The translations under genes and the position numbers were made by a program. Below the pieces are notes generated by a model, which searched no databases, was not told the origin of the DNA, and saw only the letters and a list, made by a program, of their open reading frames with translations. Source: Candidatus Zixiibacteriota bacterium (GTDB lineage: Bacteria > Zixibacteria > MSB-5A5 > GN15 > FEB-12). From it: a DNA stretch of 42,948 nucleotides. Location of the stretch: contig JAUVAR010000002.1 in the NCBI GenBank assembly GCA_030591625.1, forward strand, positions 1 to 42,948, in the 5' to 3' direction. How positions within the stretch are numbered: position 1 is the stretch's first letter; every line of letters begins with the position of its first letter. Positions 7,603 to 24,170 of the stretch are shown in pieces.

Positions 7603-8475
7603 GTGCGAAAATTTAATAATCGGATCATAAGTAATACTTTTCAATTGGGACTAATGGTCCTCATAGCTTTGGCTTTCGTGTCGTGTGATGCAAAGATTTT
7701 CGAGTCGAAGTGGGTTGCAAACCCTATAACTGTCGATGGTATAGCCTCGGATTGGCGAGGTATCGCATTACACAAGATTGCCGATAGTGACGCATCTTTT
7801 GGAATCAGTAATAATGAGGATAATATTTATCTGATTTTGCGTTTTCAGGATTCTCAGTGGGCCAGAGCAATGCGACAAAATGGCCTCACTATTTGGATTG
7901 ATGATGGCCGAGATGAGAGCAAGGATCTTGGTATAAAATTCCAAGATGGGCCTGATATGGCTGAGATTATGTTGATGGAGGGTCGCTCCACGAATGAGAT
8001 GAGACCGGAAATGGTCGAACGGATGCAGCAAATGGAATCCCAACTTAAAAAGTCTTTAACATTTATAGATAAAGCTAATCTGATAAAATCAGAGATTGAG
8101 CCCGATGGCTCAAATGGACCCAAAGCAGCATTTGCGATAGATAAGTCCTTTGTTGTATATGAGTTTAGCCTTCCAATTGGAAAATCTGAAGTTAGAGATT
8201 ATGGTCTCGACCTTGAGCCAGGACAGGAATTTGGAATAATTTTGGAATTTGGTGGTCATAATGTGCGCACATCAAATGATCGCAGCGAAAGAGGCGGAGT
8301 TGAAATGTCAGGCGGAGGCAAACAAGGTGGCTCGCGCATGGGAGGCGGAGGCGGACGTCGCGGTGGCATGGGTGGTCGTAAAGGTGGCGACACAAGACAA
8401 CGACAGCAACAACTCGAAAAGCAAGAATTGAAAGTTAACACAGCTCTCGCATTGTCAGATGAGCCTGCAAAATGA
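7603..8475 (+). CDS. Lipoprotein with Gly/Arg-rich C-terminal tail (function unknown)
   Basis: GTG start after AAAGGAG. It has a lipobox-like 'LIALAFVSCD'. The N-terminal 'PITVDGIASDW' region resembles CBM9/DOMON-type modules (weak). The tail reads 'GGGKQGGSRMGGGGGRRGGMGGRKGG...QRQQQ'. Confidence 0.6.
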   Translation: MRKFNNRIISNTFQLGLMVLIALAFVSCDAKIFESKWVANPITVDGIASDWRGIALHKIADSDASFGISNNEDNIYLILRFQDSQWARAMRQNGLTIWIDDGRDESKDLGIKFQDGPDMAEIMLMEGRSTNEMRPEMVERMQQMESQLKKSLTFIDKANLIKSEIEPDGSNGPKAAFAIDKSFVVYEFSLPIGKSEVRDYGLDLEPGQEFGIILEFGGHNVRTSNDRSERGGVEMSGGGKQGGSRMGGGGGRRGGMGGRKGGDTRQRQQQLEKQELKVNTALALSDEPAK

Positions 8476-8678: not shown

Positions 8679-9590
8679 TTGCAGATAACAATTAACAACC
8701 TTTCCAAGCAGTACGCCGGTGGTAAGTTTGCCCTTCGCAATATTGATCTGACAATCAATAGCGGTATGTTCGGTCTTTTGGGTCCTAATGGTGCCGGCAA
8801 AACTACACTCATTCGAATTCTTGTAACTCTTCTTAAGCCATCCGAAGGAAAAGTAAAGATCAACGAATTAGACCTTCAAAAAGATCGCCGTGAAATCAGA
8901 AAGATGATCGGCTATCTACCTCAGGACTTTGCGACTTTCTCAAAACTTCATGTTTGGGAATTTTTAGATTATGCCGGTGCCATGTCGGGAATAAAATCGA
9001 GAAAGAAACGGATGTCAGAAGTTGACAGGCTTTTGGAAGAGGTTGGTTTGTTTGATGTTCGTGATCGTCGCGCCGACAAACTGTCGGGTGGTATGAAACG
9101 TCGTTTGGGAATTGCTCAAACATTAATTGGCGAACCATCGGTGATGATTGTCGATGAACCGACTGTCGGACTTGATCCCCACGAACGGCTGCGATTTAGA
9201 AATCTTCTCGCCGATCTTTCACGTAAAGAAATGATTATTATTCTTTCTACTCACATCGTAGGAGATATCTCCTCGACTTGTACCGATGTAGCACTACTCA
9301 ATAATGGTAAAATTTCATTCAATGGCTCGCCCGATGAATTGGTAGCATCGGCACAGGGTAAAGTTTGGCGTATAGTTTCGTCATCTTTGGAAATGGATAG
9401 CATAAGAGTTAAGTATCCGGTTATCTCGGCGGTACCTGCCGAAGAGGGTTTTGAGTTGCGTGTTGTGGCCAATGAAAAACCCGGACCAAACGCCCAAGTT
9501 GTCGAGCCTAATCTTGAAGATGCCTATATTCATTTCATGCAGTCAACAGGTTATGACATGAACCTTGAGTCGGGAGATAACGGATGGTAG
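8679..9590 (+). CDS. ABC transporter ATP-binding protein (NBD1)
   Basis: TTG is the only possible start; an in-frame TGA lies at 8664-8666. Motifs present: Walker A GPNGAGKTT (8781-8807), signature LSGGMKRR, Walker B MIVDEPTVGLD, H-loop STH. It is a clear paralogue of the C-terminal domain of ORF 18710-23443. Confidence 0.92.
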   Translation: MQITINNLSKQYAGGKFALRNIDLTINSGMFGLLGPNGAGKTTLIRILVTLLKPSEGKVKINELDLQKDRREIRKMIGYLPQDFATFSKLHVWEFLDYAGAMSGIKSRKKRMSEVDRLLEEVGLFDVRDRRADKLSGGMKRRLGIAQTLIGEPSVMIVDEPTVGLDPHERLRFRNLLADLSRKEMIIILSTHIVGDISSTCTDVALLNNGKISFNGSPDELVASAQGKVWRIVSSSLEMDSIRVKYPVISAVPAEEGFELRVVANEKPGPNAQVVEPNLEDAYIHFMQSTGYDMNLESGDNGW

Positions 9591-9614
9591 TGACATCGGA
9601 AGGATTGCTATAGT

Positions 9615-12600
9615 ATGAATTTTCACTCTATCTGGACAATCGCACGCTTTGAAGCAAAGTTGTTGCTACGTTCATGGGCATTCAGAATCTTTTCTGCAGG
9701 TGGTTTTTTAATACTGCTCATAATGGATATTGCAGTAGGTTCGAAGGTCGCCGATGAACCACATTACATGGTAGCGCTCTCTTCTGCCCTTCCGTTGGCC
9801 AATCTTAAAATGCTCAATGTATATCAGGGAATCATTGCAGCATTTCTTGCAACTGAGTTCATGAAACGTGATCGCAAGCATGATACAACACAAGTCTTCT
9901 ATGTCAGGTCGTATTCCAACTGGGATTATATCTTGGGTAAGCTGGCAGGCATAACAACCGTTTTTGGATTTCTAAATATTGCTGTTCTCTTTCAGGTTTT
10001 AATAATACATCTCTTCTTCTCGCATTCACCATTCGCATGGCAGCCATACTTGTATTTTCTTGGTATAATTTCAATCCCGACATTATTCTTTATGATCGGA
10101 ATGTCGTTCCTGCTAATTACTGTCCTGCGTTCACAGGCTTTAGTTTTTGTAATCATGCTTGCCTATTCGTTGCTTGTTTTAATTATGCTCGGAGGTAAGT
10201 ATTTCAACATCTTAGATTCTTTTGCTCTGTGGCAACCGATCACTTATTCGGATTTCAATGGACTCGGTGATCTCAAGCCGTTGCTCCTGATAAGAGGTGC
10301 GTATTTCATGTTTGGGCTTGGCTTGATTTCGCTGGCTGTGCTAACGACCCGACGGCTGAGACAGTCTATCACATTCAACAGCTTAGCAGGTTTTATTGCT
10401 GTAGGTTCAATAGCTATCGCATGTACACTTGGCGTTATGCATATAAATGATTCCAAGACGGACTTAGCATATAGAGAGAAACTTAAAGAGCTATCAATTA
10501 CCAATGCTAATTATCCAACAGCGACGATACGAGATTATAAAATTGATCTCAAATTGTTAAACCGTGAAATCAATGTCGTTTCAAAAATAACAACTGTTAA
10601 TGAAACTGATACAGCTTTGGATTCGGTTTTCTTTACACTTAATCCGGGGTTGACGATTAGTTCGATTACATCGTCGGGTGCATCTGTTAACTTTGATCGC
10701 AACGAACAGATATGCTGGGTAAAACCTGACGGTCAGCTTGGAATTAATGACAGCCTGATACTCGACGTTGCATATACTGGTGCCATTGACGACAGGGTAA
10801 TGTATCTCGATATCGAACAGGAACGTCTTGATGCTCTTTATTATCTATGGATGATCAGAGTAAAAAAACAATACTCGTATTGTGAATCTGATTATTTGCA
10901 TCTTACACCTGAAGCAGCCTGGTATCCGATTGCCGGGGTTCCGCATGGTGCGGCTTTGCCTGCATCGGGAGCACAACGATTCGCAACGTATCAGCTGTCT
11001 GCAACAGTACCTGCGGGTTTGACCGTAATTTCACAAAATGATGGTGAACCAGAAATAGTCACAAACGAATCAGGCGTTACATACAAATTTACATCGGAAC
11101 AAGTATTGCCACAGATTTCGTTAACAGCCGGTAACTATGAACGACGCAGCATAGATGTTGATTCAGTAAATTATTCGCTCTACTTCCTTCCGGGACACAA
11201 TTACTTTGATGAATATTTTGAGAATGTTGGGGATACGATTGAATATCTGATTAGAGATTTGCGTAATGGTTACGAAGTACCGCTTGGTATAAAATATCCG
11301 TATTCAAATCTTTCGATAGTTGAAGTACCGGCCGGCTTCTATAGTTATGAACGATTATGGACATCTGCTCAAGAGATGGTCCAACCACAGATTGTATTCA
11401 TGCCTGAGATGGGTGTTGTTGGTGATGGTACCGATCTTGATCGCGCCAAACGAAGTGGCACGAGACGTCAGGAACGAAACAACCAGGAGGAGAGCTCTCT
11501 TGTTCTGGAGTCAGGGTATTTTAATAATTTCGTGAAGGCTGATCTTCTTGCTCAAAATGTAGCCTGGTGGGGTATCAGACGGCGTGTTGATTTTTTTGAA
11601 CCTCGCTATGAACTCTTTTCCAATTTCGTATCGTACAAGACTCGAATCGTTTCTGATCAATGGCCGGTGCTCAATCGTGCAATTGAGTCATACTATCAAC
11701 AGAGAGTGAAAGTCCCTGATGAAACATTTTCAAGAATGTGGCGTGGATTGACAGATACTGAAAAAGCAAATCTCGCTCTGAAGAGAATTCCGTTTAAGGA
11801 CTTATTATCAAATACTAAAATTGAACGTGACATCAGGCAGGCCGCTCTCACCAACAAATGTGAATACCTCCTCTTGATGATGGAAGCTAAAATTGGACCG
11901 GATATATTCTCGGAAGCTATGGATAGTTATCTTGAGAACAACGCCAACACAGTTGTACCTGAAAGTACTTTTATGCAGTTTGCATCGGAGATGACAAACA
12001 GTGATTTTGCGGGCATTGTTGACCAATGGTATGCCGACACTGTTTTAGCAGGATATTATATTGAAAATGTGGAATGCTACAAAGTTATAGATGGTGAACG
12101 AACGCGCACACAGGTTAAGTTTAAACTTACTAACCCTACAAAGACCGACGGTGCCCTTTCTGTTAACATTCGCTACAGGAAAAAGCAGGCAGACCGTCAC
12201 TCCGGACGTGACCAACCAGATTATACTCGTACACTTTTTGTACCGGCTTTGACAAGACATGAAATTGGAATTATAGTAGATGACGAAGTTTCCAATCTGC
12301 AACTTGGTACTTTTGTTTCACAGAATATCCCTTCTGTTTTACAGTCTCATTTCAGAGAACAAAAACTAAGAGATGATGAAATTATCTTTGAAGGTGAGAT
12401 CGTTGACACTTTCGACTTAAAGAGCACGGTTAATGCGAGTGAGTACGTTGTTGATAACGAGGATCTCGGATTTGAAGCTACCAACTCAGCCCGTGAAAAC
12501 TGGCTAAGACTATATCTGTTGAAACTTATCGGTGACGAAGAAGAAAATGATGTCTATCATGGCATGAGATTTTGGGATCCACCCGGAACATGGCTCGCTA

Positions 12601-12983
12601 CCACCGATCAACGATTCCATGGACGATTTATTCATTCGGCTTACTATAAAAGATCAGGAGATGGTACATCGATCGTTTCATGGGCTGCTGACTTAGAGGA
12701 GGCTGGTGACTACGATGTGTATTATTACTGCGAAGGGGAACAGCGTTTCAGATGGTGGCGCCGTAGAAATCGTGGAAAGATGGTTGATAAGGGCGAGAAA
12801 CAGTTCATTGTTCATCATGTTGATGGTTCAGACGATGTACCGCTGGACTTAAACGGGGTTGAAGAAGGTTGGAATTTCTTGGGTACTTTCAGATTTAAGT
12901 CCGGCGAGAACTGGATTGATCTAACTGATAAAACAACTGCGCAAACTATTACAGCCGATGCGATCAAGTGGGTGAAACGTTAG
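9615..12983 (+). CDS. ABC-2-type permease (~7 hydrophobic helices) fused to an M1-aminopeptidase-like domain lacking HExxH and a golvesin-C-terminal-like domain
   Basis: 1122 aa. The N-terminal ~290 aa is polytopic. Next comes a region resembling the M1 N-terminal beta-sandwich ('IRDYKIDLKL...LDSVFFTLNPGLTISSITSSG...LILDVAYTGAI'). There is no HExxH anywhere in the protein. The C-terminus, 'GDYDVYYY...FIVHHVDGSDDVPLDLNG..GWNFLGTFRFKSGENWIDLTDKT..TITADAIKWV', resembles the golvesin-type C-terminal domain. Confidence 0.6.
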   Translation: MNFHSIWTIARFEAKLLLRSWAFRIFSAGGFLILLIMDIAVGSKVADEPHYMVALSSALPLANLKMLNVYQGIIAAFLATEFMKRDRKHDTTQVFYVRSYSNWDYILGKLAGITTVFGFLNIAVLFQVLIIHLFFSHSPFAWQPYLYFLGIISIPTLFFMIGMSFLLITVLRSQALVFVIMLAYSLLVLIMLGGKYFNILDSFALWQPITYSDFNGLGDLKPLLLIRGAYFMFGLGLISLAVLTTRRLRQSITFNSLAGFIAVGSIAIACTLGVMHINDSKTDLAYREKLKELSITNANYPTATIRDYKIDLKLLNREINVVSKITTVNETDTALDSVFFTLNPGLTISSITSSGASVNFDRNEQICWVKPDGQLGINDSLILDVAYTGAIDDRVMYLDIEQERLDALYYLWMIRVKKQYSYCESDYLHLTPEAAWYPIAGVPHGAALPASGAQRFATYQLSATVPAGLTVISQNDGEPEIVTNESGVTYKFTSEQVLPQISLTAGNYERRSIDVDSVNYSLYFLPGHNYFDEYFENVGDTIEYLIRDLRNGYEVPLGIKYPYSNLSIVEVPAGFYSYERLWTSAQEMVQPQIVFMPEMGVVGDGTDLDRAKRSGTRRQERNNQEESSLVLESGYFNNFVKADLLAQNVAWWGIRRRVDFFEPRYELFSNFVSYKTRIVSDQWPVLNRAIESYYQQRVKVPDETFSRMWRGLTDTEKANLALKRIPFKDLLSNTKIERDIRQAALTNKCEYLLLMMEAKIGPDIFSEAMDSYLENNANTVVPESTFMQFASEMTNSDFAGIVDQWYADTVLAGYYIENVECYKVIDGERTRTQVKFKLTNPTKTDGALSVNIRYRKKQADRHSGRDQPDYTRTLFVPALTRHEIGIIVDDEVSNLQLGTFVSQNIPSVLQSHFREQKLRDDEIIFEGEIVDTFDLKSTVNASEYVVDNEDLGFEATNSARENWLRLYLLKLIGDEEENDVYHGMRFWDPPGTWLATTDQRFHGRFIHSAYYKRSGDGTSIVSWAADLEEAGDYDVYYYCEGEQRFRWWRRRNRGKMVDKGEKQFIVHHVDGSDDVPLDLNGVEEGWNFLGTFRFKSGENWIDLTDKTTAQTITADAIKWVKR

Positions 12984-13025
12984 AGAGATTCTTGCGTACC
13001 TGTATAGATGACTCAGAGGAGACCG

Positions 13026-14516
13026 ATGATACAATTTGATTTAATGAAACGAACATCTAAAGCTTTGCTTATTCCGTTATTACTCATTGCGATAATTGTA
13101 ATAATAGCGTCGAGCAGCAGCCAGGCCGAAACGTTCACTCTTGAACAGGCACTTGACATTGCATTCCAAAATTCCCCTACAATGAAAAATGCAGGTTGGA
13201 ATTTAGAGATTTCTCAACATAATCTTAATGCCCAGAAAGCATCACTGAAGTCGCAATTCTCGCTGAACGTCACACCGTTTTCGTGGGACAGAGGAACATC
13301 CTTTGATCCAACAACTTCTCAATATACAATAAGAGAAACCAAATCTTCCTCTGCCCGTTTTAACATTTCACAACCAATCAAATGGACTGATGGGACACTA
13401 ACTGTTTCTGAATCTATCAACTGGCAGGAAACATCTGACTCTTATTCCGGCCGCAACGACGTTACAAACTACTTAAGTTCGTTGGAACTAAGGTTCTCAC
13501 AACCAATTTTTACTTATAACCGAACCAAGATGCGGTTGAGTGAGCTTGAGCTTTCATTAGAGAATTCACAATTGAATTTTGCTTTGCAAAAACTGCAAAT
13601 TGAACGTTCAGTGACACAGGATTTCCTCGGCCTCTACCATCAATTTGAAAGTGTTAAAATTTCTCAGGAAGAATCGACCAACGCCAACGTAAGTTACGAG
13701 ATTATCTCAAACAAAGTTGAAGCGGGCATTTCTGCTCGCGAGGAACTATTTCAGGCCGATCTCACCAAAGCTAACTCGCAGGCGAACCTTGACAATAGTC
13801 GCAATCAGTATGAAAACTCATCGGACAATTTCAAACTCGCACTGGGACTTGATCTGAATATTGATGTTGAAATTGCCGCCAAACTTGAACAGGAGATTGC
13901 GAATGTTAATCTTTCTGAGGCGATCAATCATGGGCTGAAGCATAGAATGGAATTGCGTCAAAAAGATATCGATATACAGAATGCGTTATTTAATCTTACT
14001 CGTACCGGCGCTCAAAATGAGTTCTTCGGAACTCTTAATATGTCATGGGGTTTAACCGGAACCGATTCAAGCTACAAGGATATTTTTGACTCACCGTCCA
14101 AAGATCGAGGGGTTGCAATTTCATTTGATATACCTCTATTCGATTGGGGCGAGAAGAAACATCGCATGGAAGCGAGTGAGTTGGAAATTGAATCAGCTCG
14201 CCTTTCCGCCGAAGAACAACAACGCCAGATCATTCTGGAAATCAGACAGGCGTATCGCAATCTCGTCTATCAGGAATCACAAATAGCCATTGCGGATAAA
14301 AATGTAGAAAACGCACGCCGGACTTATGAACTGAATTTGGAAAGATATAAAAGTGGTGACCTTTCGTCTAAAGATATCGCTTTCTATCAAACACAACTTT
14401 CTCAGCAACGACTGAGTAAAGTCCAGGCGTTAATAAATTATAAAATAGCCCTGCTTGATCTGAAGATACGATCCCTTTGGGATTTCAGCACCGGCAAGGC
14501 GGTGCTCGAACTGTAA
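13026..14516 (+). CDS. TolC-family outer-membrane efflux protein
   Basis: ORF 13008-14516. I prefer the ATG at 13026, which is preceded by AGGAGA. It has a signal peptide. 'FTLEQALDIAFQNSPTMKNA' is a typical TolC/OEP start, and the coiled-coil/beta repeat is duplicated. Confidence 0.85.
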   Translation: MIQFDLMKRTSKALLIPLLLIAIIVIIASSSSQAETFTLEQALDIAFQNSPTMKNAGWNLEISQHNLNAQKASLKSQFSLNVTPFSWDRGTSFDPTTSQYTIRETKSSSARFNISQPIKWTDGTLTVSESINWQETSDSYSGRNDVTNYLSSLELRFSQPIFTYNRTKMRLSELELSLENSQLNFALQKLQIERSVTQDFLGLYHQFESVKISQEESTNANVSYEIISNKVEAGISAREELFQADLTKANSQANLDNSRNQYENSSDNFKLALGLDLNIDVEIAAKLEQEIANVNLSEAINHGLKHRMELRQKDIDIQNALFNLTRTGAQNEFFGTLNMSWGLTGTDSSYKDIFDSPSKDRGVAISFDIPLFDWGEKKHRMEASELEIESARLSAEEQQRQIILEIRQAYRNLVYQESQIAIADKNVENARRTYELNLERYKSGDLSSKDIAFYQTQLSQQRLSKVQALINYKIALLDLKIRSLWDFSTGKAVLEL

Positions 14517-14528
14517 CAGGAGATTTCA

Positions 14529-15587
14529 ATGATAAACCGATTAGCAATAATCACCCTTGGCATTTGCGCCCTCTTTGTAGTAGGGTGTGAAGATGATGGC
14601 CCTGACCTGGATATTGAAGCATCTATTCCTGTCCGGGTGGATTCGGTCGCACTTAAACCGATTATGGAATTTGCATTTGCAACGGGAACGGTCAAGGCGG
14701 TCAAAGAAGCGACGCTTAGCGCACAGCAGCCGGGCTATTACCGTCTTTTGAATAACCCACGTACCGGCAAAGCGTTTGCAATGGGTGATGAAGTTAAGAC
14801 TGGTGAAATGATTGTAAGGCTGGTGAATCAGGAATTTGAAAACCAAATCGGCTTTGAATCGAAGAAACTAAATTTTGATATCTCCGAACGTGAATTTATT
14901 AAACAAAAATCGCTGTACGAAAAAGGTGGAATCACCCAACGTGAGTTGATCGACTCTGAACGTTCGTTCATCGATGCTCGTTATGGTTTAGACAATGCCA
15001 AGCTGTCACTCGATAAACTCAAGATCAAGTCTCCATTCAATGGAATCATCGTTGACCTTCCATTTTATAGTGCCAATCAACTGGTAGAATCGAACGCCCT
15101 CATTGTACAAGTTATGGACTACTCTCGTCTTTATACCGAAGTAACACTTCCGGGTAAAGAGATGGAACGAGTGAAGCGTAATCAGGAAGCCCTCATTACA
15201 AATTATGCGCACCCTGAGGATACACTCAATGGTTTTGTGTCGCAAGTCTCACCTGCACTCGATCCTGAGAGCCGTATGTTTAAACTCGGAATTGAAATTA
15301 ACAATGACTCTCTCCTTTTGAGACCGGGGATGTTTGTTAAGGCAGACATCATTGTTGACTCACGTGATTCGACCCTTGTTATCCCGAAAGATATTATTTT
15401 GGAACGTCGCGGTAATAAGACTGTCTTTGTTGTTGAAGCAGGTGTTGCCCAGGAACGAATATTACGTCTGGGCCTATCGAATCAAAAAGAAGTGGAAGTC
15501 CTTGATGGACTTGAACACAATGATCGTCTGGTCGTTGAGGGATTCGAGACCCTCCGCCCTCGCTCTAAAGTAAAGATCACTAAATAG
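14529..15587 (+). CDS. Efflux RND periplasmic adaptor (membrane fusion protein), lipoprotein
   Basis: AGGAG precedes the ATG. Lipobox 'LFVVGCED'. It has an HlyD/MFP-like lipoyl and beta-barrel pattern ('IKSPFNGIIVDL', 'RPGMFVKADI'). Confidence 0.85.
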   Translation: MINRLAIITLGICALFVVGCEDDGPDLDIEASIPVRVDSVALKPIMEFAFATGTVKAVKEATLSAQQPGYYRLLNNPRTGKAFAMGDEVKTGEMIVRLVNQEFENQIGFESKKLNFDISEREFIKQKSLYEKGGITQRELIDSERSFIDARYGLDNAKLSLDKLKIKSPFNGIIVDLPFYSANQLVESNALIVQVMDYSRLYTEVTLPGKEMERVKRNQEALITNYAHPEDTLNGFVSQVSPALDPESRMFKLGIEINNDSLLLRPGMFVKADIIVDSRDSTLVIPKDIILERRGNKTVFVVEAGVAQERILRLGLSNQKEVEVLDGLEHNDRLVVEGFETLRPRSKVKITK

Positions 15588-15608: not shown

Positions 15609-18600
15609 ATGTTTAGACTGGCCCGCTTTTCTGTAAAATATCCTACTACTGTTCTAATGATGATCTTAGCAATCGGTTTGCTTGGATACATTTCGTTCAC
15701 GCGACTTGGAGTTGATCTTCTTCCGGACCTGAATAACCCAAGATTATTTATTGAAGTTAATGCGGGTGAAAAACCTCCTGCTGAAATGGAACAACAATAT
15801 GTAACCGACCTTGAGGCTGTTGCTGTCAGGGGAAGTAAAGTTGAAAACGTATCGTCGATTTCACGAATAGGCAAAGCTCTTATTACAGTTGAGTACTCCT
15901 GGGATGCCGACATGGATGAGGCGTTTCTTGATCTGCAAAAATCAATAGCCGACTTCACTCAAGGTTCTGATGCCGACGAAGTTAGTGTAAGTCAACTTGA
16001 TCCCAACGCAGTTCCTATTTTGATTGCAACGTTTGCTCATCCCGAGATTGATGACCTTGACCTGCTCAGACAAACTGCGGAAAATATAATTCAGAATGAA
16101 CTGATTCGTCTGCCTGGTGTGGCAGGTGTTGATGTTGTTGGCAGTCGGGTGCGTGAAGTTGAAGTAAGGACTGATGCATTCACCCTTGAAGCTTACGGTC
16201 TCACTCTTGATGAATTGGCAGGCGCGATCGAACGTACCAATCGGAATATGACCGGTGGTTCTATAATCGAAATGGGTCGTCGATATATGATTCGCGGTGT
16301 AGGCGAACTGACCAGCCGTGAAGACTTGGAAGATATCATTGTAACATACAAAACACCTGCCGTTTCAAGAGGCTTAGGTGAACAGTTAAATAGTGAGCGG
16401 GTGCCGGTATATCTGCGTGAGGTTGCAACTGTTGAATTTGTTCTTAGTGAACCAGAAAACATTGTTCGTTCGAACGGACGTCAGTGTCTTGCGCTCGAAA
16501 TATTCAAAGAAGCACGATACAACACTATAGATGCAGCCGAGACAGCTCGTAAAAGACTTGATGAACTGCACGCTTCACTATCTGGATATGAAATTGATAT
16601 TATTCAGGATCAATCAAAATTTATTGATGCAGCTATAACAGAAGTTGAACAGACCGGTTTGGCCGGGGTCCTTCTTGCTATTATGATTCTGTTTGTTTTC
16701 CTGCGACGTATTGGTGTAACGGCAATCATAAGTATAGCGATTCCGATTTCCGTCATTGCTACTTTCAACCTGATGTACTTCAATGGCCTGTCGTTGAACA
16801 TCATGACACTTGGAGGACTCGCACTTGGCGCGGGCATGCTTGTTGATAACGCTATTGTTGTTATGGAGAATATTTTCAGACACCTTGAGTCAGGTAAATC
16901 AATTACTGAGGCTGCAATACATGGCGCGGGTGAAGTTGGCGGAGCGATTACGAGTTCAACACTTACAACAATTGTTGTTTTCCTTCCGATTGTATATCTG
17001 CATGGTGCTGCCGGTGAACTCTTCCGCGAGCAGGCCTGGACAGTTGCTTATTCGCTGATCTCATCATTATTTGTTGCACTAATCGTAATTCCAATGCTCT
17101 GCTCAAGAATGCTCAAGGATAAAAAAGCCAAAACAATTTCATCCGTTCAGTTTACAACCTACGGTAATTTTCTTAAGACCGTTATCGCCAAAAAAGGTGT
17201 TGTTGCATTTTCCGCCGCAATGCTCGTCTTGACCGCTGCATTTATTGTACCGATGGTCGGTAGTGAGTTCATGCCCCAAACTGAGCAGGGAGAGATGTTT
17301 GTTCATTTGACTTTACCGGAAGGAACTTCACTTGAACGCACAGAAGGAACAGTACGGAACATTGAAGCAATGATAGGGCAGAAATATTCTTCTTTTATCA
17401 GTAAGATATATTCTAAAGTTGGACCGACCAGCAATAACTCAGGCTCGGCTGTTGAACTAACAGATGACAATTATGCAGTCATTCATCTTGTGCTTACAGA
17501 AGCTGGTTCCGGGGCCACACATTCGCTTGTAGCTGGACTTGACGCAGAACTTAAAAACATTCCGGATGCCGAGACACGGATATCGCTTCAACAAACAGCT
17601 CTCAAGACGACGCTTGGAACAACAACCGCACCTCTCGTTGTCGAGATAAAGGGCAAAGATTTAGATGTCTTGCAGTCTTTATCGGAAGAAGTCAAACTGA
17701 CTCTTGAGTCTATTGAGCATCTTACTAATGTTGAGACGAGTTTTCGCGATGGACGCCCCGAGATCAATATTATGGTTGATCGCACAGTTGCCTCGCAGTT
17801 CTCACTTGATGCCGACAAGGTTGGTAATGATCTAAGAGCGTTGCTTTCGGGGCGTGACGCCGGACAACTTCAATACCAGGGAGATTATGCCGATATAAAG
17901 CTACGACGCCCAGAGGTTTCTTTAAGCGAACTTAACTCTATTATAATAGAAGCGCCGGGCGGACGTCAGGTCCGACTTGATGAAATCGCACGATTGATAC
18001 CATCAGTTTCAACACGAGAGATATCTCGCAACAATCAAATTAGAATTGCAAGCGTGAGTGCTCATTTGACATCGGATGAAGCGTTTGATAAAACGGCTGC
18101 AACAGTTCGTGATGCGATATCAAAAATAACGATACCACCAGAATATTCATTTGAAATCACCGGTGAAGAAAAAATGCGTCGCGAAGCGTTTGGTAATCTC
18201 AAGTTCGCTTTGTTGCTTGCAATTATACTCGTTTATATGGTTATGGCTGCACAGTTTGAATCGCTCCTGCATCCCTTTGTAATATTGCTGACTATTCCGC
18301 TCGCAGGAGTTGGCGCTGTGCTAATTCTTTTTGTGATGGGACTGCCCTTCAATGTTATGTCTTTCATTGGAATAATCATGCTTGCAGGTATAGCTGTTAA
18401 TGATTCAATTATTCTGGTGGACAGGATAAATCAGAACCGAAGGAATGGACTGGCTCTTATCGATGCAATCGTTGATGCCGGTCAGACTCGTATTCGTCCG
18501 ATTGTTATGACATCGGTAACAACAATTCTCGCACTACTTCCTCTTACAATTGGAATTGGTGAAGGAGCAGCGCTTCGTGCTCCTATGGCTCTTGCAGTTA

Positions 18601-18713
18601 TTGGTGGACTTGTTACATCAACTGCTCTTACTCTTATTGTTATACCAGCTGTTTATCATCTTATAGCTGGACGCTCTGCAATCAGTAACAGGATAACAAC
18701 CTCCGAACAATGA
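15609..18713 (+). CDS. RND efflux permease (AcrB/CzcA superfamily), RND1
   Basis: 1034 aa with 12-TM/2-loop organisation. TM4 reads 'GMLVDNAIVVMENI' and TM11 reads 'RIRPIVMTSVTT'. The stop overlaps the next start (ATGA). Confidence 0.92.
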   Translation: MFRLARFSVKYPTTVLMMILAIGLLGYISFTRLGVDLLPDLNNPRLFIEVNAGEKPPAEMEQQYVTDLEAVAVRGSKVENVSSISRIGKALITVEYSWDADMDEAFLDLQKSIADFTQGSDADEVSVSQLDPNAVPILIATFAHPEIDDLDLLRQTAENIIQNELIRLPGVAGVDVVGSRVREVEVRTDAFTLEAYGLTLDELAGAIERTNRNMTGGSIIEMGRRYMIRGVGELTSREDLEDIIVTYKTPAVSRGLGEQLNSERVPVYLREVATVEFVLSEPENIVRSNGRQCLALEIFKEARYNTIDAAETARKRLDELHASLSGYEIDIIQDQSKFIDAAITEVEQTGLAGVLLAIMILFVFLRRIGVTAIISIAIPISVIATFNLMYFNGLSLNIMTLGGLALGAGMLVDNAIVVMENIFRHLESGKSITEAAIHGAGEVGGAITSSTLTTIVVFLPIVYLHGAAGELFREQAWTVAYSLISSLFVALIVIPMLCSRMLKDKKAKTISSVQFTTYGNFLKTVIAKKGVVAFSAAMLVLTAAFIVPMVGSEFMPQTEQGEMFVHLTLPEGTSLERTEGTVRNIEAMIGQKYSSFISKIYSKVGPTSNNSGSAVELTDDNYAVIHLVLTEAGSGATHSLVAGLDAELKNIPDAETRISLQQTALKTTLGTTTAPLVVEIKGKDLDVLQSLSEEVKLTLESIEHLTNVETSFRDGRPEINIMVDRTVASQFSLDADKVGNDLRALLSGRDAGQLQYQGDYADIKLRRPEVSLSELNSIIIEAPGGRQVRLDEIARLIPSVSTREISRNNQIRIASVSAHLTSDEAFDKTAATVRDAISKITIPPEYSFEITGEEKMRREAFGNLKFALLLAIILVYMVMAAQFESLLHPFVILLTIPLAGVGAVLILFVMGLPFNVMSFIGIIMLAGIAVNDSIILVDRINQNRRNGLALIDAIVDAGQTRIRPIVMTSVTTILALLPLTIGIGEGAALRAPMALAVIGGLVTSTALTLIVIPAVYHLIAGRSAISNRITTSEQ

Positions 18714-21700
18714 TCGCCTTTATCATAAGACGTCCTGTGCTGGTGGCTATGATAATAGCCGCACTCTGTTTGCTGGGCATTGTTGCGTATGATCGCCTGC
18801 CGGTTGAAAACCAGCCCTCAATCGAACTACCTATGTTAATTGTAGTGGTTGGTGGTGCCCGCGACTCTGACCCATCTTATCTTGAACGACATGCGGTAGT
18901 ACCACTTGAGAGTGCAATAGCCGGACTTGAAGATATTGAGTCGATAGAATCATACATCAGTCGTAACCGAACAACTGTCTTTGTTTATTATCAACAATCA
19001 ACTGATGTTCGTTATGCCTACCTCAAGCTTCAACAGCGAGTAAAGGCTGTTCAACAGGAGATGGGCAACAGTTTCTTTTTCTCTGTCTGGAAAATTGATA
19101 CAGAACAATTAGCAAACAGGTTTATGACACTCGAAGCGCGTGGCGCAGGTGATGTTGATCAGATACGAAACGTAATTGACCGTAAGGTAACTGCTGAACT
19201 CCAAAATATCGACGGTGTCGCTAATGTCGCAATCTATGGCGGGCGTGAACGTTCGGTTGAAATTCTTCTTGATGAAACAGCAATGGCTGCACATAAGCTG
19301 ACTTCGGCACAAATCAGAAACGCTATCGCATCGGGCAATCAGGACCGTCAGTTCCTTGGCCATGTAACTGATGGCCGACGTAAGCATGCAGTAAATTTGG
19401 GGTCCGATCTTACATCCGTAGAAAATCTTGGTAATATTGTTCTGAAGGAACAAGGGCCGGTTCTGCTTAAGCATGTTGCCGAGGTATTAGATGGTGCGTC
19501 GGAAGAGACTTCGATTTCACGAGTCAACGGCATGGAGTCAGTTTCGGTTTCAATAATTCGTGAACGACAGGCGAACTTATTGGAACTGGCCGAACGAACT
19601 CATGAACAGATTGAAAAACTTAATGAACAACTCAAGATTGATGGTATCGAGCTAATCGTAAAAGAAGATCAAGCTGAAGCGATCTCAAAAAATATTGACA
19701 CGATCAAAGAGCTTGCACTAATCGGTTCAATTTTGGCAATAATTATACTATGGCTTTTCCTTCGCAACTTTGCTTTGGTGCTTGTTGTTGCCGGAGCAAT
19801 TCCGATATCTGTTTTGATAGCACTCAATTTCTTTTATGTCTATGACCTGACAATCAATACGCTCTCGCTTTTTGGAATCGCTATTGCCATTGGTATGCTG
19901 TTGGATAATAGTGTTGTTGTTTTAGAATCGATTCACAGACAGATAGGACTGGGCAAAAATCCGTACGATGCGGTCATCATCGGGGCCGGCGAAGTTTGGC
20001 GTCCTGTCATGGCTTCCACTATGACTACAGTTGCGGTTTTCCTTCCGTTTATTTTTACCGACAACTTTTTGATACAACTGTTGGGACGTCATATTGGAAT
20101 TTCGATTGTCTCGACTCTGCTTGTATCACTCGGTGTTGCCTTTTTAATTATTCCCGCTTTCGCATACAGATTTTTGTCTAAGAAAAGTGATTCGTCAATT
20201 GCCGACATGAACATCATTCCCCGCTCAAACCGAATGATGCAAATTTATACTCTATTCTTAAAATCATGTCTGCGTTTCCCTGCTCGTACTTCGATTATTA
20301 GTGTCGTTGTGCTTTTCATGAGTATCATAATTTGTCTCGCGGTCAGTATCAATTCTCCAACTGAGGTAGAATCAGAGATGTTCAATCTCTATGCTACTCT
20401 TCCAAGCGGGACAACTCTTGACGTTGCTGACATACAGTCTGTAAAGATGGATGAACGAATTTCTGACATTGCTGAGTTAAAAGAACGTGCGGCTCAGATT
20501 GAAGAAGATCAAATCACTTTCTCGTTTGAATTGCTTGAAGATTACGAAGATATTGATGATCGTGACTTGAGTGCGGTTAAGTCTGCAATTATCAATAGTC
20601 TCGAAGATGGTTTTCCAAGAATAGATTTTAATTATGAACAGCCACTCTCCGATTCTCGTTATCAAGGAGGCGGTGGTGGAGGCATGGGCGGAGGAGGCGG
20701 TGATGAACGCGCCTTTGGACGTTTGCTCGGTATCGGTGTAGCCGAAGAAAAAGTTATTATACGTGGACAGGATATCGGTTTGCTCGCAACTGTCGCCGAT
20801 GACATTCAGTACAACATAGATAATATGGAAACAGTGCGTCGTTCGCGCCAAAGTATCGCTTCTCCAAGACCAGGTATTGATTTGGTGTTTAGTAAAACTG
20901 CAGTTGGTTATTTTGGTATTACTCCACAGGCGATAATTGCAGAACTATCGAATTTTCAGAGTGAAGTTTCTTCCGGCGTAAGCTTACAGGATGGCGACGA
21001 AAAAATATCGGTCATCCTCAAGAATGAAGAACTTGAGGAACGAAATTCTGATGATTTAAGAATACTGCAAATTCCTTCGAATGTTGGCGGTACTGTTCCG
21101 ATCAGTCAATTAGCTCGGTTAGTTTATACTTCATCACTTTCCGGGATTAACAGAATCAATCAGGAAAAAGAGGTTGAAGTAACTTATACTTTTGAAGATG
21201 ACATCACTGGATCAAAACAACTATTAGATGATGCAAGAGCATCGATTGATGATGTCATAGACGATATCATTCCTCCACCGGGAATTTCAATTGAAGTTGT
21301 TCATGATGAACTTGATCTTTCAGAATTTTATTTCCTTATCTTTGCAGCAATTGTTTTGATCTTCATGATTTTAGCTTCTGCTTTTGAATCATTGATTCAA
21401 CCTCTGGTCATGATGTTCACAATACCGCTTGCAACTGTTGGTGCCTTTTGGGGTCTTATTCTTACCGGAAATTCTATCATGAACGCCAACGCTTTGATAG
21501 GATTCATAATTTTGCTCGGTGTGATTGTGAACAACGGTATTATTCTGATTGACTACTCACGTTTGCTTCAGAAAAGAAATTATCGTCCTACGCGCGCTTT
21601 GCTGATGGCCGGACAGGCTCGCTTGCGTCCAATTTTGATAACTACTATTACTTCAGTTCTGGCGATGATTCCTCTGGCGATGGGCAACACCGACTATGTA

Positions 21701-23443
21701 GCAAAAATTGGGGCACCATTTGCAATTACGGTTATTGGCGGTCTTTCAATCGGAACACTGTTCACACTCTTATTGATTCCTACTTTTTCTTATGGCATGC
21801 ACACCGCCTTGGTATGGTGGCATAAGCTATCATTAAGAATCAAACTGATTCAGTTAGTTGCGTTGATTGGAGCTTCATTTATGATTTATAATGGTGTTGA
21901 TTCAACTCTCTGGCAATTTGCGAATCTGATCGCAGTATTTGGAATTGTACCTGGCATTACATATTTCAGCATGACATCACTAAGACGTGCATCATCAAAA
22001 ATAATTCCTGAGACTGATCCTATCACCATCAAAATCCACAACGTTGTAAAGTTCTATGACGGCTTCTCTCGTTTCGTTAGAGAATGGCACAAAGCTGATA
22101 GACGCAATGAACACTTACAGGCAAGAGGAGAACGGTTGCCGGGCAGAAAGACGATTGATCAAATCTGGCAACTTCCACTTTGGCTTTTCCATCTATACTT
22201 TGCGTATATCCATGCCGAAAGTGGTTTCTGGATTCTGATTTTCGCTATCACTGCATATATCCATACTGTTTTGTTAGGCAGATTTATTCTTGGTATCTTT
22301 AAGAGTAACGATAATCATTCAATCAAAAGTGCAAAATGGTACCAACGCCTGCTCACTCTTATCGTCTGGATTGCCCCGGGTGCAAATATTGGATGGTGGC
22401 TCTTCGGTCATGATGCTATCGCTTCGGCAATTGTCTTTGGTACACCGTGGTATCTGGCTGTTCTAATATGGCGAACTTCGGAAATACTATATCGCAACAA
22501 AACCGATATCATGCGTCTTACCGGCAGGTTCAAAAGAACCCGCAAACTTTTTTATCGCATGGTAAAAGCTATTCCAATAATTGGTAAGAAGAAGATTCCG
22601 TTCCGTGCTCTTGATCAAGTATCATTGGAAATCGGAAGCGGCATGTTTGGACTTGTTGGTCCTAACGGTGCAGGTAAAACTACCTTGATGCGAGTTATAT
22701 GTGGAATCCTCGAACAATCGCAGGGTGTAGTGACCGTTAATGGACTTGATCTAAATGAGTACCGCGAAGAAATGCAGGCATTGATCGGATATCTTCCGCA
22801 GGAGTTTGGTACTTATGAAAATATGACGGCGTATCAATTCCTTGATTACCAGGCGATTCTTAAAGGCATCACCGAACCAACAAAACGCAAAGAGATTGTT
22901 GAACGTGCAATCAAATCAGTGCACCTGGGAGAAAAACGGAATACTAAGATAAAAGCATTCTCCGGTGGTATGAAACAACGCGTTGGTATTGCACAAACAT
23001 TATTGCATTTGCCTCGCATTCTTGTTGTTGATGAACCAACGGCCGGACTCGATCCACGCGAGCGAATAAGATTCCGTAATTTACTTGCCGATCTTGCTCG
23101 TGACAGAGTTGTTATTTTTTCTACTCACATAATTGAAGATATATCAAGTTCGTGTAATCGTCTCGCCGTCTTAACCGATGGAAAGGTCAGATTCCTCGGC
23201 ACACCTGTTGAAATGGTTAAGCTGACCGAAGGCTATGTATGGCAAGCAACTGTGAGTGAGGAGTTCTTCGAAACTTTCCGTACAAAAGCAAGAGTTGTGC
23301 ATCATATGCGTGATGGTGATGGAATAAAATTACGAGTACTCTCAAAAGAGAAACCACTGGAACAGGCAAAAGCTGTGACGCCGTCGCTTGAGGATTCATA
23401 CCTTTGGTTGCTCGATACTATGGAGACCAGAGATGACAACTAA
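18710..23443 (+). CDS. RND efflux permease (RND2) fused to extra TM helices and a C-terminal ABC ATPase domain (NBD2)
   Basis: 1577-aa uninterrupted ORF. aa 1-~1030 is an RND permease (TM4 '[13 protein letters not shown]', TM11 '[12 protein letters not shown]'). aa ~1040-1095 holds 2 hydrophobic helices. aa 1105-1118, '[14 protein letters not shown]', is the NBD strand beta1. aa 1119-1295 is a hydrophobic insertion. From aa 1296 the NBD continues with Walker A [9 protein letters not shown] (22658-22684), [19 protein letters not shown] and STH. Confidence 0.85.
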   Translation: [1577 protein letters not shown]

Positions 23444-24170
23444 CAACCAATCTTCTACATCTCTGCTCGGAAAACTTTCTACTATTATTACATTCCTTCG
23501 CTATAATGCGTCGAACATCTTTGCGGGTAAATTCTTCTACTTCCTCGGGCTTGCAGTTGCAATTTATTTTACTGTAATTATTATTTATGTCCTTGATGAA
23601 GCACTACCCCCGGATGCTGAAGTTATTTACTATATGCTGCTCGTTCCAAGTGTCTTGCTGGTTTTTTATCCATCTTGTTACTCGATACAGGCAGATGTTG
23701 ATTCACGCATGATTGAAACTCTTTTTGGCATTCCTGATTATCGTTACAAAGTCTGGCTTGTGAGAAATCTGACTCAGTATGGGGTTGTAATTATTTTATT
23801 AAGCGGGCTTGCTATTTTAAGCAGATTTGCTATTGCAGAATTCAGCATTACAATGATGCTGTACCATCTTCTATTTCCTGTGATTTTCATAGGGAGTCTT
23901 GGTTTTTTAACTTCGACAATAAGTCGTTCCGGTAATGGTACGGCGGTGATTATGGTCATAGTGTTAATGGTTTTTTGGATTTTGTCTGCAGATGTACTTG
24001 AAGAGAGCAGATGGAATCTGTTTTTTAATCCATTTGAAAAAGTTGATATGTATCAAACTGTCATGCTCGAAGCTAACACATTTTATAATCGTGTCTATTT
24101 GATTGTTGGTTCAATTATTGCAACGATGCTTGCACTATTAAGACTGCAAAAGCGAGAACGATTTATATAA
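23433..24170 (+). CDS. ABC-2-type polytopic membrane protein (putative permease 2)
   Basis: ORF 23388-24170, whose track start is a TTG. I prefer the ATG at 23433, which overlaps the upstream gene end by 11 nt. It has ~6 hydrophobic helices and no other motif. Confidence 0.55.
   Translation: MTTNNQSSTSLLGKLSTIITFLRYNASNIFAGKFFYFLGLAVAIYFTVIIIYVLDEALPPDAEVIYYMLLVPSVLLVFYPSCYSIQADVDSRMIETLFGIPDYRYKVWLVRNLTQYGVVIILLSGLAILSRFAIAEFSITMMLYHLLFPVIFIGSLGFLTSTISRSGNGTAVIMVIVLMVFWILSADVLEESRWNLFFNPFEKVDMYQTVMLEANTFYNRVYLIVGSIIATMLALLRLQKRERFI

Follow-up and report, generated by a model that had tools for sequence, protein, structure and literature searches.

The RND-ABC fusion protein and its insert

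The window analysed here, a stretch of 42,948 nucleotides of contig JAUVAR010000002.1 (assembly GCA_030591625.1, Candidatus Zixiibacteriota bacterium), contains an open reading frame (ORF) of 1577 amino acids (aa) at 18710..23443, which joins a permease of the resistance-nodulation-division (RND) type to an ATP-binding cassette (ABC) ATPase in a single polypeptide. All features of the window given below lie on the + strand. The element under study is a segment of 177 residues (22064..22594) in the nucleotide-binding domain (NBD) of this fusion, referred to as NBD2, which the original prediction had described as a membrane module of four helices placed within the first β-hairpin of the ATPase fold. 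Nucleotides 22064-22594 encode aa 1119-1295, in frame with the fusion ORF as had been claimed, and the flanking strings quoted in that prediction were located at aa 1105-1118 and from aa 1296 onwards. The exact sequence of the fusion protein was looked up and was not on record.

The protein's N-terminal part (aa 1-1035, 18710..21814), designated RND2, is an AcrB-like permease with 12 transmembrane (TM) helices and full-length ACR_tran architecture, recognised by both Pfam (PF00873, E = 4e-157, in two stretches with the best one over aa 1-592) and NCBIfam (RND_permease_2, aa 4-1025). It aligns to MdtB, MdtF and AcrB, with MdtB being the best solved match to its C-terminal half. A glycine run was seen in the periplasmic part of RND2 (aa ~ 650-666, ~ 20660-20710), which is unusual for a porter or docking domain.

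Two further helices, TM13 and TM14 (aa 1040-1091, 21827..21982), follow RND TM12 and are indicated by hydropathy peaks, conserved hydrophobicity and structure prediction. AlphaFold2 (AF2) was run on aa 1030-1577 (548 aa) with an alignment of 114 sequences, giving a mean pLDDT (predicted local distance difference test) of 86.5 and a predicted TM-score (pTM) of 0.75; in the numbering of this model the two helices are H13-33 and H37-66 (pLDDT 83-94), and they bring the chain back to the cytoplasm. From here the chain runs through a linker of 12 residues to strand β1 with Tyr1116, then through a basic amphipathic helix and two TM hairpins, and on via a basic connector to β2, Walker A and the rest of the NBD. 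This path was read from the sequence, with AF2 used for secondary structure only. As TM13 and TM14 precede β1, the C-terminal module comprises 2 + 4 TM helices. No Pfam match falls between those of the RND part and of PF00005 (aa ~ 1030-1300), and NCBIfam has no matching model for aa 1030-1297. Likewise, neither the insert by itself nor aa 1030-1297 hit any family when scanned against Pfam and NCBIfam, apart from noise-level matches (US30, DUF6574, E about 0.06-0.08).

The remainder of the ATPase, from β2 onwards and including a C-terminal domain of regulatory type (22595..23443), was assigned by PF00005 (aa 1301-1445, E = 2.5e-28), by motifs and by fold, and about 200 NCBIfam ABC models match it. 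Judged by its motifs, NBD2 looks catalytically competent: it has Walker A, a Q-loop, an LSGGQ-type signature, Walker B with the catalytic Glu, a D-loop (AGLD) and an H-loop (STH). NCBIfam profiles of the GldA/DrrA type match from aa ~ 1298, entering at profile positions ~ 6-16. The closest sequence matches in PDB are ABCA3/4/1/7, TM0544, TM_1403 and NosF, while fold matches include TM_1403, NosF, ABCA3/4/7 and LptB; profiles, PDB matches and fold thus place NBD2 with ABCA/DrrA/NosF-type ATPases. The β1-β2 hairpin of NBD2 is not contiguous, since 177 residues with four predicted TM helices intervene.

AF2 assigned six helices to the insert: an amphipathic one at aa 1121-1138, four long ones at aa 1146-1168, 1172-1199, 1205-1234 and 1237-1262, and another amphipathic one at aa 1275-1287. 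Most of the insert was modelled at pLDDT 85-92. The four long helices coincide with hydropathy peaks (family mean Kyte-Doolittle 0.7-1.8), in agreement with the four hydrophobic helices of the original prediction. The entry connector (22064..22144) consists of the basic amphipathic helix (H92-109 in the model, with the motif SRFxREW) and a loop. It leads into the first hairpin (22145..22300), made of TMa (aa 1146-1168, H117-139) and TMb (aa 1172-1197, H143-170), with boundaries set by AF2 and hydropathy. A basic loop (aa 1198-1211, 22301..22342), predicted to be cytoplasmic from its Lys + Arg content, separates this from the second hairpin (22343..22483), in which TMc (aa 1212-1233, H176-205) and TMd (aa 1237-1258, H208-233) were delimited in the same way. 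The very basic exit connector (22484..22594) carries the second amphipathic helix (H246-258) and continues as coil, with the motif IPxIGKKK, into β2.

Across the family, the three predicted cytoplasmic segments of the insert contain on average 8.0, 4.1 and 11.1 Lys + Arg residues (in the first of these, the entry connector, the helix accounts for 6.3 and the loop for 1.7), compared with at most 0.5 in each of the two periplasmic turns, which are three residues long. This charge bias fits the positive-inside rule and points to a pair of tight hairpins that starts and finishes in the cytoplasm, the topology required of an insertion into a cytoplasmic domain. Hydropathy, charge distribution and the AF2 helices together support a membrane-embedded insert.

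Conserved residues in the insert helices are W1153, P1156, F1160, F1164, W1174, W1220, P1223 and W1247; no conserved charged intramembrane residue was seen in the 114-sequence alignment. Conservation is strong in the connectors beside the A-loop (SRFxREW, GRF, IPxIGKKK): R1124, E1125 and W1126 are nearly invariant in the entry connector, and in the exit connector G1272 and P1289 are invariant, with R1269, F1274, R1278, V1285, I1291 and G1292 nearly so. An internal duplication was considered and rejected, in that hhalign of hairpin 1 versus hairpin 2 aligned their W-x-x-P motifs in register without reaching significance (P = 0.026, probability 1.9%).

Identity of the first strand of the ATPase domain

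The placement of the insert depends on whether aa 1105-1118 (22022..22063), including the presumed A-loop residue Y1116, form β1 of NBD2. In the 114-sequence alignment, Y1116 is invariant and both V1113 and K1114 are nearly invariant. The arrangement of β1 plus insert is kept in over 114 homologues at 45-57% identity, and more than 120 database homologues with 48-59% identity align over 98% of aa 1095-1577, including the insert. Divergent members, with E-values of 1e-4 to 1e-10 against the insert profile, retain 'IxIRNLTKxYG' or a similar string directly before the hydrophobic block. Such a motif is the classical ABC β1/A-loop signature with its adenine-stacking aromatic residue.

The free ATPase paralogue encoded in the same window, NBD1 (8679..9590), lacks the insert and is matched by PF00005 and by GldA/DrrA-type profiles from position 1. 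After removal of the insert, the tyrosine and the Walker A glycine of NBD2 are 24 residues apart, as against 23 in NBD1, so that the insert boundaries should be correct within 1-2 residues. In BLASTP, NBD2 aligned with NBD1 at 46% identity from NBD1 residue 18 on, and aa 1105-1118 separately paired with NBD1 residues 1-14, 177 residues upstream of the main match.

In the AF2 model, aa 1107-1116 (E78-87) form a strand by DSSP at pLDDT about 90, and all of the remaining strands of the model fall in the NBD. Because DSSP requires a ladder partner to call a strand, β1 would be paired inside the NBD sheet. Mutual information with average product correction (MI-APC) in the family alignment ranked G1118-Q1338 as the top pair, linking the end of β1 to the residue with which the strand at aa 1338-1343 begins; with an effective number of sequences of only 78 the signal is noisy, and it lends weak support to an antiparallel β1-β4 contact. 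A fold search with the 548-aa model returned matches to the NBD only, and it is uninformative on the helices and on β1, as its local alignments begin at β2.

In a splice test, aa 1100-1118 were joined to aa 1296-1577 (aa 1119-1295 deleted) and the construct was scored by 25 listed NCBIfam profiles. About 20 of these aligned from profile position 1-5, among them extended profiles such as GldA, PQQ-system ATPase, LptB, FtsE, ECF, sulfate and PotA, with score gains of ~ 1-8 bits (GldA 181.5 vs 178.0, NodI 122.3 vs 117.2, PotA 113.4 vs 106.9). With the native flank (aa 1270-1577), most profiles begin near position 14-16, and eight decoys of 19 residues, drawn at random from the same protein, gave alignments that started mostly near profile position 16, with unchanged scores.

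A natural counterpart of this test was found in three metagenomic contigs (L023-L025), in which the fusion gene occurs split. The RND gene of the split form encodes 1101 aa, including TM13-14, and ends '...AEYINSDESLRINI' followed by a stop; 16 bases on, a gene for a 483-aa ATPase starts, reading 'MMGTEYIKSDEPLRIKVQNVVKIYDKD...'. The ATPase polypeptide consists of β1 first, then the four helices, then the rest of the domain. Since the split ATPase gene begins exactly at the segment corresponding to aa 1105-1118, as ordinary ABC ATPases do, this supports the segment as the real β1. At the junction (L023:9040-9125, the same in L024 and L025) lies a short tandem duplication of the β1-coding region, one copy of which ('...AEYINSDESLRINI', stop, 'LVVKIYDG') closes the RND gene while the other ('MMGTEYIKSDEPLRIKVQNVVKIYD') opens the ATPase gene. 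The split looks like a recent gene fission via this short duplication.

Collectively, the conserved Y1116, the AF2 strand, the splice test and the split genes support aa 1105-1118 as behaving like a true β1/A-loop of the NBD. They agree with the original prediction in placing the insertion between β1 and β2, and the structure prediction it had proposed as a check returned both a strand at aa 1107-1116 and four long helices in the insert.

Family distribution, gene neighbourhood and the RND permeases

A profile of β1 plus insert had 122 matches among 1.84 billion cluster representatives. All full-length matches were RND-ABC fusions that measure 1550-1590 aa and carry the module at about residues 1095-1300; the others were either fragments or the rare split forms, which are about 500 aa long. 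In none of the 122 was the module found without the ATPase or in another architecture. The insert module is clade-specific, restricted to the RND-ABC fusion family, which answers a question that the original prediction had left to a homologue search. Family members come from Zixibacteria, Aminicenantes, Krumholzibacteria, Latescibacterota, Spirochaetales and many Bacteroidales/Marinilabiliales, making this a small, widespread and uncharacterised family. In databases its members carry unspecific names ('efflux RND transporter permease subunit', 'ABC-type multidrug transport system ATPase subunit'). Fused ORFs of ~ 1570 aa were present at 19 genome loci, including those of the cultured Perlabentimonas gracilis and Labilibaculum euxinus, and this recurrence in independent genomes excludes an assembly or frameshift artefact.

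These 19 loci share a conserved gene order: 1122-aa protein, outer-membrane factor, membrane-fusion protein, first RND permease (RND1), RND2-insert-NBD fusion and a small permease. In the window, the outer-membrane factor (13008..14516, Pfam OEP), the membrane-fusion protein (14529..15587, Pfam HlyD_D23) and RND1 (15609..18713, Pfam ACR_tran) precede the fusion gene. The start of the last gene of the series (23433..24170) overlaps the fusion stop; it encodes a protein of 245 aa with six predicted membrane helices, probably an ABC-2/type V permease judged by its AF2 fold, and its equivalent lies directly 3' of the fusion gene in 20 related loci.

No Pfam or NCBIfam family was found for this 245-aa protein, which has 1243 homologues; among 120 listed, all source names read 'hypothetical protein'. 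A structure predicted with database homologues (AF2, pLDDT 90.8, pTM 0.88) gave best fold matches that were all TM domains (TMDs) of type V transporters, namely PmtCD, ABCG2, ABCG25, ABCG5/G8, CcmB, TarG, Wzm and ABCA. On the basis of this model, the protein appears to represent an unrecognised ABC-2 permease family. As the predicted fold of the 245-aa protein and the relatives of NBD2 both point to type V, NBD2 probably has an ordinary permease partner.

The start of the operon (8679-12983) encodes a second ABC pair, composed of the free ATPase NBD1 and the 1122-aa protein. The latter combines an ABC-2-like membrane part at its N-terminus with a weak M1-peptidase-like region and a C-terminal Golvesin_C domain; most related loci retain its C-terminus upstream of the outer-membrane factor. 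An origin of the insert from an ABC-2 TMD was tried and rejected: the probabilities from hhalign were 0.1-1.1% when the insert, or the whole 2 + 4 TM region, was compared with the downstream permease family and with the ABC-2 N-terminus of the 1122-aa protein.

Alignment to MdtB revealed that RND2 lacks the AcrB-type proton relay (two Asp in TM4, Lys in TM10), and RND1 lacks it too. In TM4 (aa ~ 395-415 of the fusion), D-N replaces D407-D408 in both permeases (RND1 'LVDNA', RND2 'LLDNS'), and in TM10 (aa ~ 937-955 of the fusion) both carry N where AcrB has K940 (RND1 'AVNDS', RND2 'VIVNNG'). The residue after the K940 position is D in RND1 and N in RND2. RND2 therefore has one carboxylate fewer than RND1, which raises the question of how the permease that carries the ATPase is energised.

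Comparison with known systems and possible roles of the insert

ABC ATPase domains are regarded as compact soluble modules that reach the membrane only via the coupling helices of separate TMDs. Here, by prediction, four membrane helices thread through the nucleotide-sensing A-loop hairpin of an ATPase that is welded to a pump of the proton-driven RND type and encoded beside a probable ABC-2 permease. The original prediction called this module very unusual, which holds for its membrane nature and size, both of which appear unprecedented; it does not hold for the site. To our knowledge, the regulatory insertion of the first NBD of CFTR is the only precedent for an insertion between β1 and β2. 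It occupies the same place, where strand 1 of the ABC-specific antiparallel β-domain leads to strand 2, shortly after the A-loop aromatic residue, and corresponds to CFTR residues 404-435 (PMC2217481). CFTR cut within this insertion (1-414 + 433-1480) still forms working, normally gating channels (PMC2217481), so that a distant supply of β1 is possible. The two insertions differ in character, however. That of CFTR is about 30 residues long, soluble, largely disordered, mobile and phosphorylated, whereas the present one has 177 residues, is predicted to be well ordered, comprises four TM helices and two conserved amphipathic connectors in place of a short mobile segment with kinase sites, and is found in a bacterial ATPase of type V that is joined to an RND pump. 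The CFTR precedent, TM13-14 and the type V-like permease gene had been overlooked in the original prediction.

In sequence and fold, NBD2 is closest to the NBDs of type V exporters (DrrAB, GldA, NosFY, Wzm-Wzt, TarGH, ABCA, ABCG), and a six-helix protein whose best fold matches, by prediction, are type V TMDs is encoded next door. Unlike NBD2, those type V relatives with solved structures that were aligned here show an uninterrupted β1-β2 hairpin, and we know of no type V member with TM helices inside its NBD or with an NBD fused to an RND permease. As in pumps of the MdtABC type, the operon pairs two tandem RND permeases, here both full-length ACR_tran, with an outer-membrane factor and a membrane-fusion protein, but its second permease has two extra TM helices and a C-terminal ABC ATPase. 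MacB has a large periplasmic domain between TM1 and TM2. Type VII systems (MacB/FtsX) also link an ABC ATPase covalently to four TM helices, and the ATPase there operates together with a membrane-fusion protein and an outer-membrane factor; in contrast to the MacB arrangement, the four helices here lie inside the NBD and are connected by periplasmic turns of three residues. The MacB NBD is intact and N-terminal to its helices (PMC8277102). FtsX and MacB families were not among the matches returned by the Pfam and NCBIfam scans. The literature yielded no paper on an RND-ABC fusion or on TM helices inside an NBD, nor does a comprehensive review of tripartite pumps mention such a fusion in its accessible part. 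What is new here is the membrane insert in an NBD together with the RND-ABC fusion, while the ABC NBD, the type V exporter and the RND tripartite pump are of known kinds.

We consider it very probable that the anatomy is that of a four-helix membrane module inserted in the β1-β2 (A-loop) hairpin of an otherwise canonical ABC ATPase. Taken together with a role as anchor and docking scaffold, this reading is still reasonably probable, while a specific docking or coupling function, considered by itself, is tentative and somewhat doubtful. Docking or coupling to the RND transmembrane domain, as suggested in the original prediction, is plausible, and the insert could also dock to the 245-aa permease, instead of or besides the RND part.

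Several points weigh against parts of this reading. The gains in the splice test were small, decoys also aligned near the profile start in isolated profiles, and one β-rich decoy equalled the score of the true segment in FtsE, the sole such case. HMMER matched the native flank to β1 of ABCA3, which makes a local pseudo-β1 conceivable. Both the pairing of β1 with β2/β4 and the packing of the helices on TM13-14 are suggested by DSSP, pLDDT and pTM, and the predicted membrane topology derives from hydropathy, charge bias and AF2 helices. The fold matches of the 245-aa protein, although mutually consistent, had TM-scores of 0.46-0.61 and weak E-values (0.02-0.5). Finally, a plain anchor role would fit equally well.

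The HMMER match just mentioned is also the starting point for a simpler explanation, in which the NBD is N-terminally truncated, an ordinary TM linker or TMD between RND and NBD accounts for the hydrophobic stretch, the likeness of the distal segment (aa 1105-1118) to β1 is due to chance and aa 1283-1295 serve as the first strand. That local segment was aligned with ABCA3 β1 (IKELSKVYEQRVPL) at moderate posterior probability, and the BLAST match of the distal segment with β1 of NBD1 is not significant alone (E = 2.8). The local segment, however, has the nearly invariant Gly1292 at the position of the A-loop aromatic residue, is modelled by AF2 as helix (aa 1275-1287) and coil (aa 1288-1297), and is not spanned by the NCBIfam profiles; it is the distal segment that holds an invariant Tyr in an LxKxY(G/D) context, even in very divergent members, that AF2 makes a confident strand and that goes with the NBD gene after natural fission. 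A truncated NBD is therefore very improbable. Alternatively, the 2 + 4 TM helices would themselves serve in transport, as a degenerate six-helix TMD within a heterodimeric type V transporter whose other half would be the downstream permease or the ABC-2 domain of the 1122-aa protein, with NBD1 as a possible second NBD. The helix count is that of ABC-2 TMDs, the operon encodes two ATPases at 46% identity and two proteins with ABC-2-like membrane parts, and the pTM of 0.75 suggests that helices and NBD form one rigid unit. This explanation nevertheless appears improbable, given that profile-profile similarity to the permease or to the ABC-2 part of the 1122-aa protein was absent (0.1-1.1%, see above), that turns of three residues on the periplasmic side and the lack of conserved polar or charged intramembrane residues are unlike a substrate pathway, that the split form puts TM13-14 and the four helices on different polypeptides, and that the neighbouring gene already encodes a probable six-helix permease.

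That the insert is a membrane anchor only, with neither a specific partner nor a coupling role, would account for the nature of the conserved helix residues, which are mostly interfacial Trp, Pro and Phe with no charged intramembrane residue among them, and the 483-aa ATPase of the split forms would need an anchor of its own. In the fused form, by far the commonest, such an anchor would be redundant because β1 is tethered to TM14 by about 12 residues; moreover, ABC ATPases normally need only their permease as anchor, and the strongly conserved connectors beside the A-loop argue for a specific interface. We regard a plain anchor as unlikely. A comparably low probability attaches to the most far-reaching proposal, an integrated ABC-RND hybrid machine in which the insert would pass NBD closure on to TM13-14 and to the RND domain with its altered proton relay. 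If this were true, ATP hydrolysis might gate or help drive the tripartite RND pump, or a type V exporter might pass its substrate directly to it.

Under the favoured reading of an inserted anchor and docking scaffold, the module most likely provides no translocation pathway, as it has no periplasm-exposed loops and its membrane part contains no conserved charge. It would hold the ATPase in place in the plane of the membrane, next to RND TM13-14 and/or the permease. NBD2 and the 245-aa permease would form a type V (ABC-2) exporter held against TM13-14 of its own RND protomer, and the insert would be a physical, possibly allosteric link between an ATP-driven inner-membrane exporter and the tripartite RND pump of the same operon. 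Because both ends of the insert leave the NBD only a few residues away from the A-loop tyrosine, ATP binding and NBD dimerisation could move its helices, and movement of the helices could act in reverse. More speculatively, an MdtB2C-like trimer of one RND1 and two RND2 might bring two NBDs together to dimerise over two permeases.

If the insert does couple, it would represent a new way to pass ATP-dependent motion into the membrane and the first indication that Gram-negative efflux machinery can combine its two main energy classes in one complex. The idea is directly testable, as the family is present in cultured Bacteroidota (Perlabentimonas, Labilibaculum). The anatomy, if correct, would also mean that a large folded domain is tolerated in the β1-β2 loop of an NBD, which is of use for protein engineering, and its recognition is useful for annotation since current pipelines give family members only generic RND or ABC names.

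Among the minor observations at these loci, an ORF of 290 aa lies just 5' of NBD1 (7603-8475), with no Pfam or NCBIfam match beyond noise in its low-complexity C-terminus. In one related contig (L021, CAWDBX010000009.1, 3600-11450) the coding sequences of RND1 and RND2-NBD are split over several frames, probably owing to sequencing frameshifts of a long-read assembly rather than because they are real pseudogenes.

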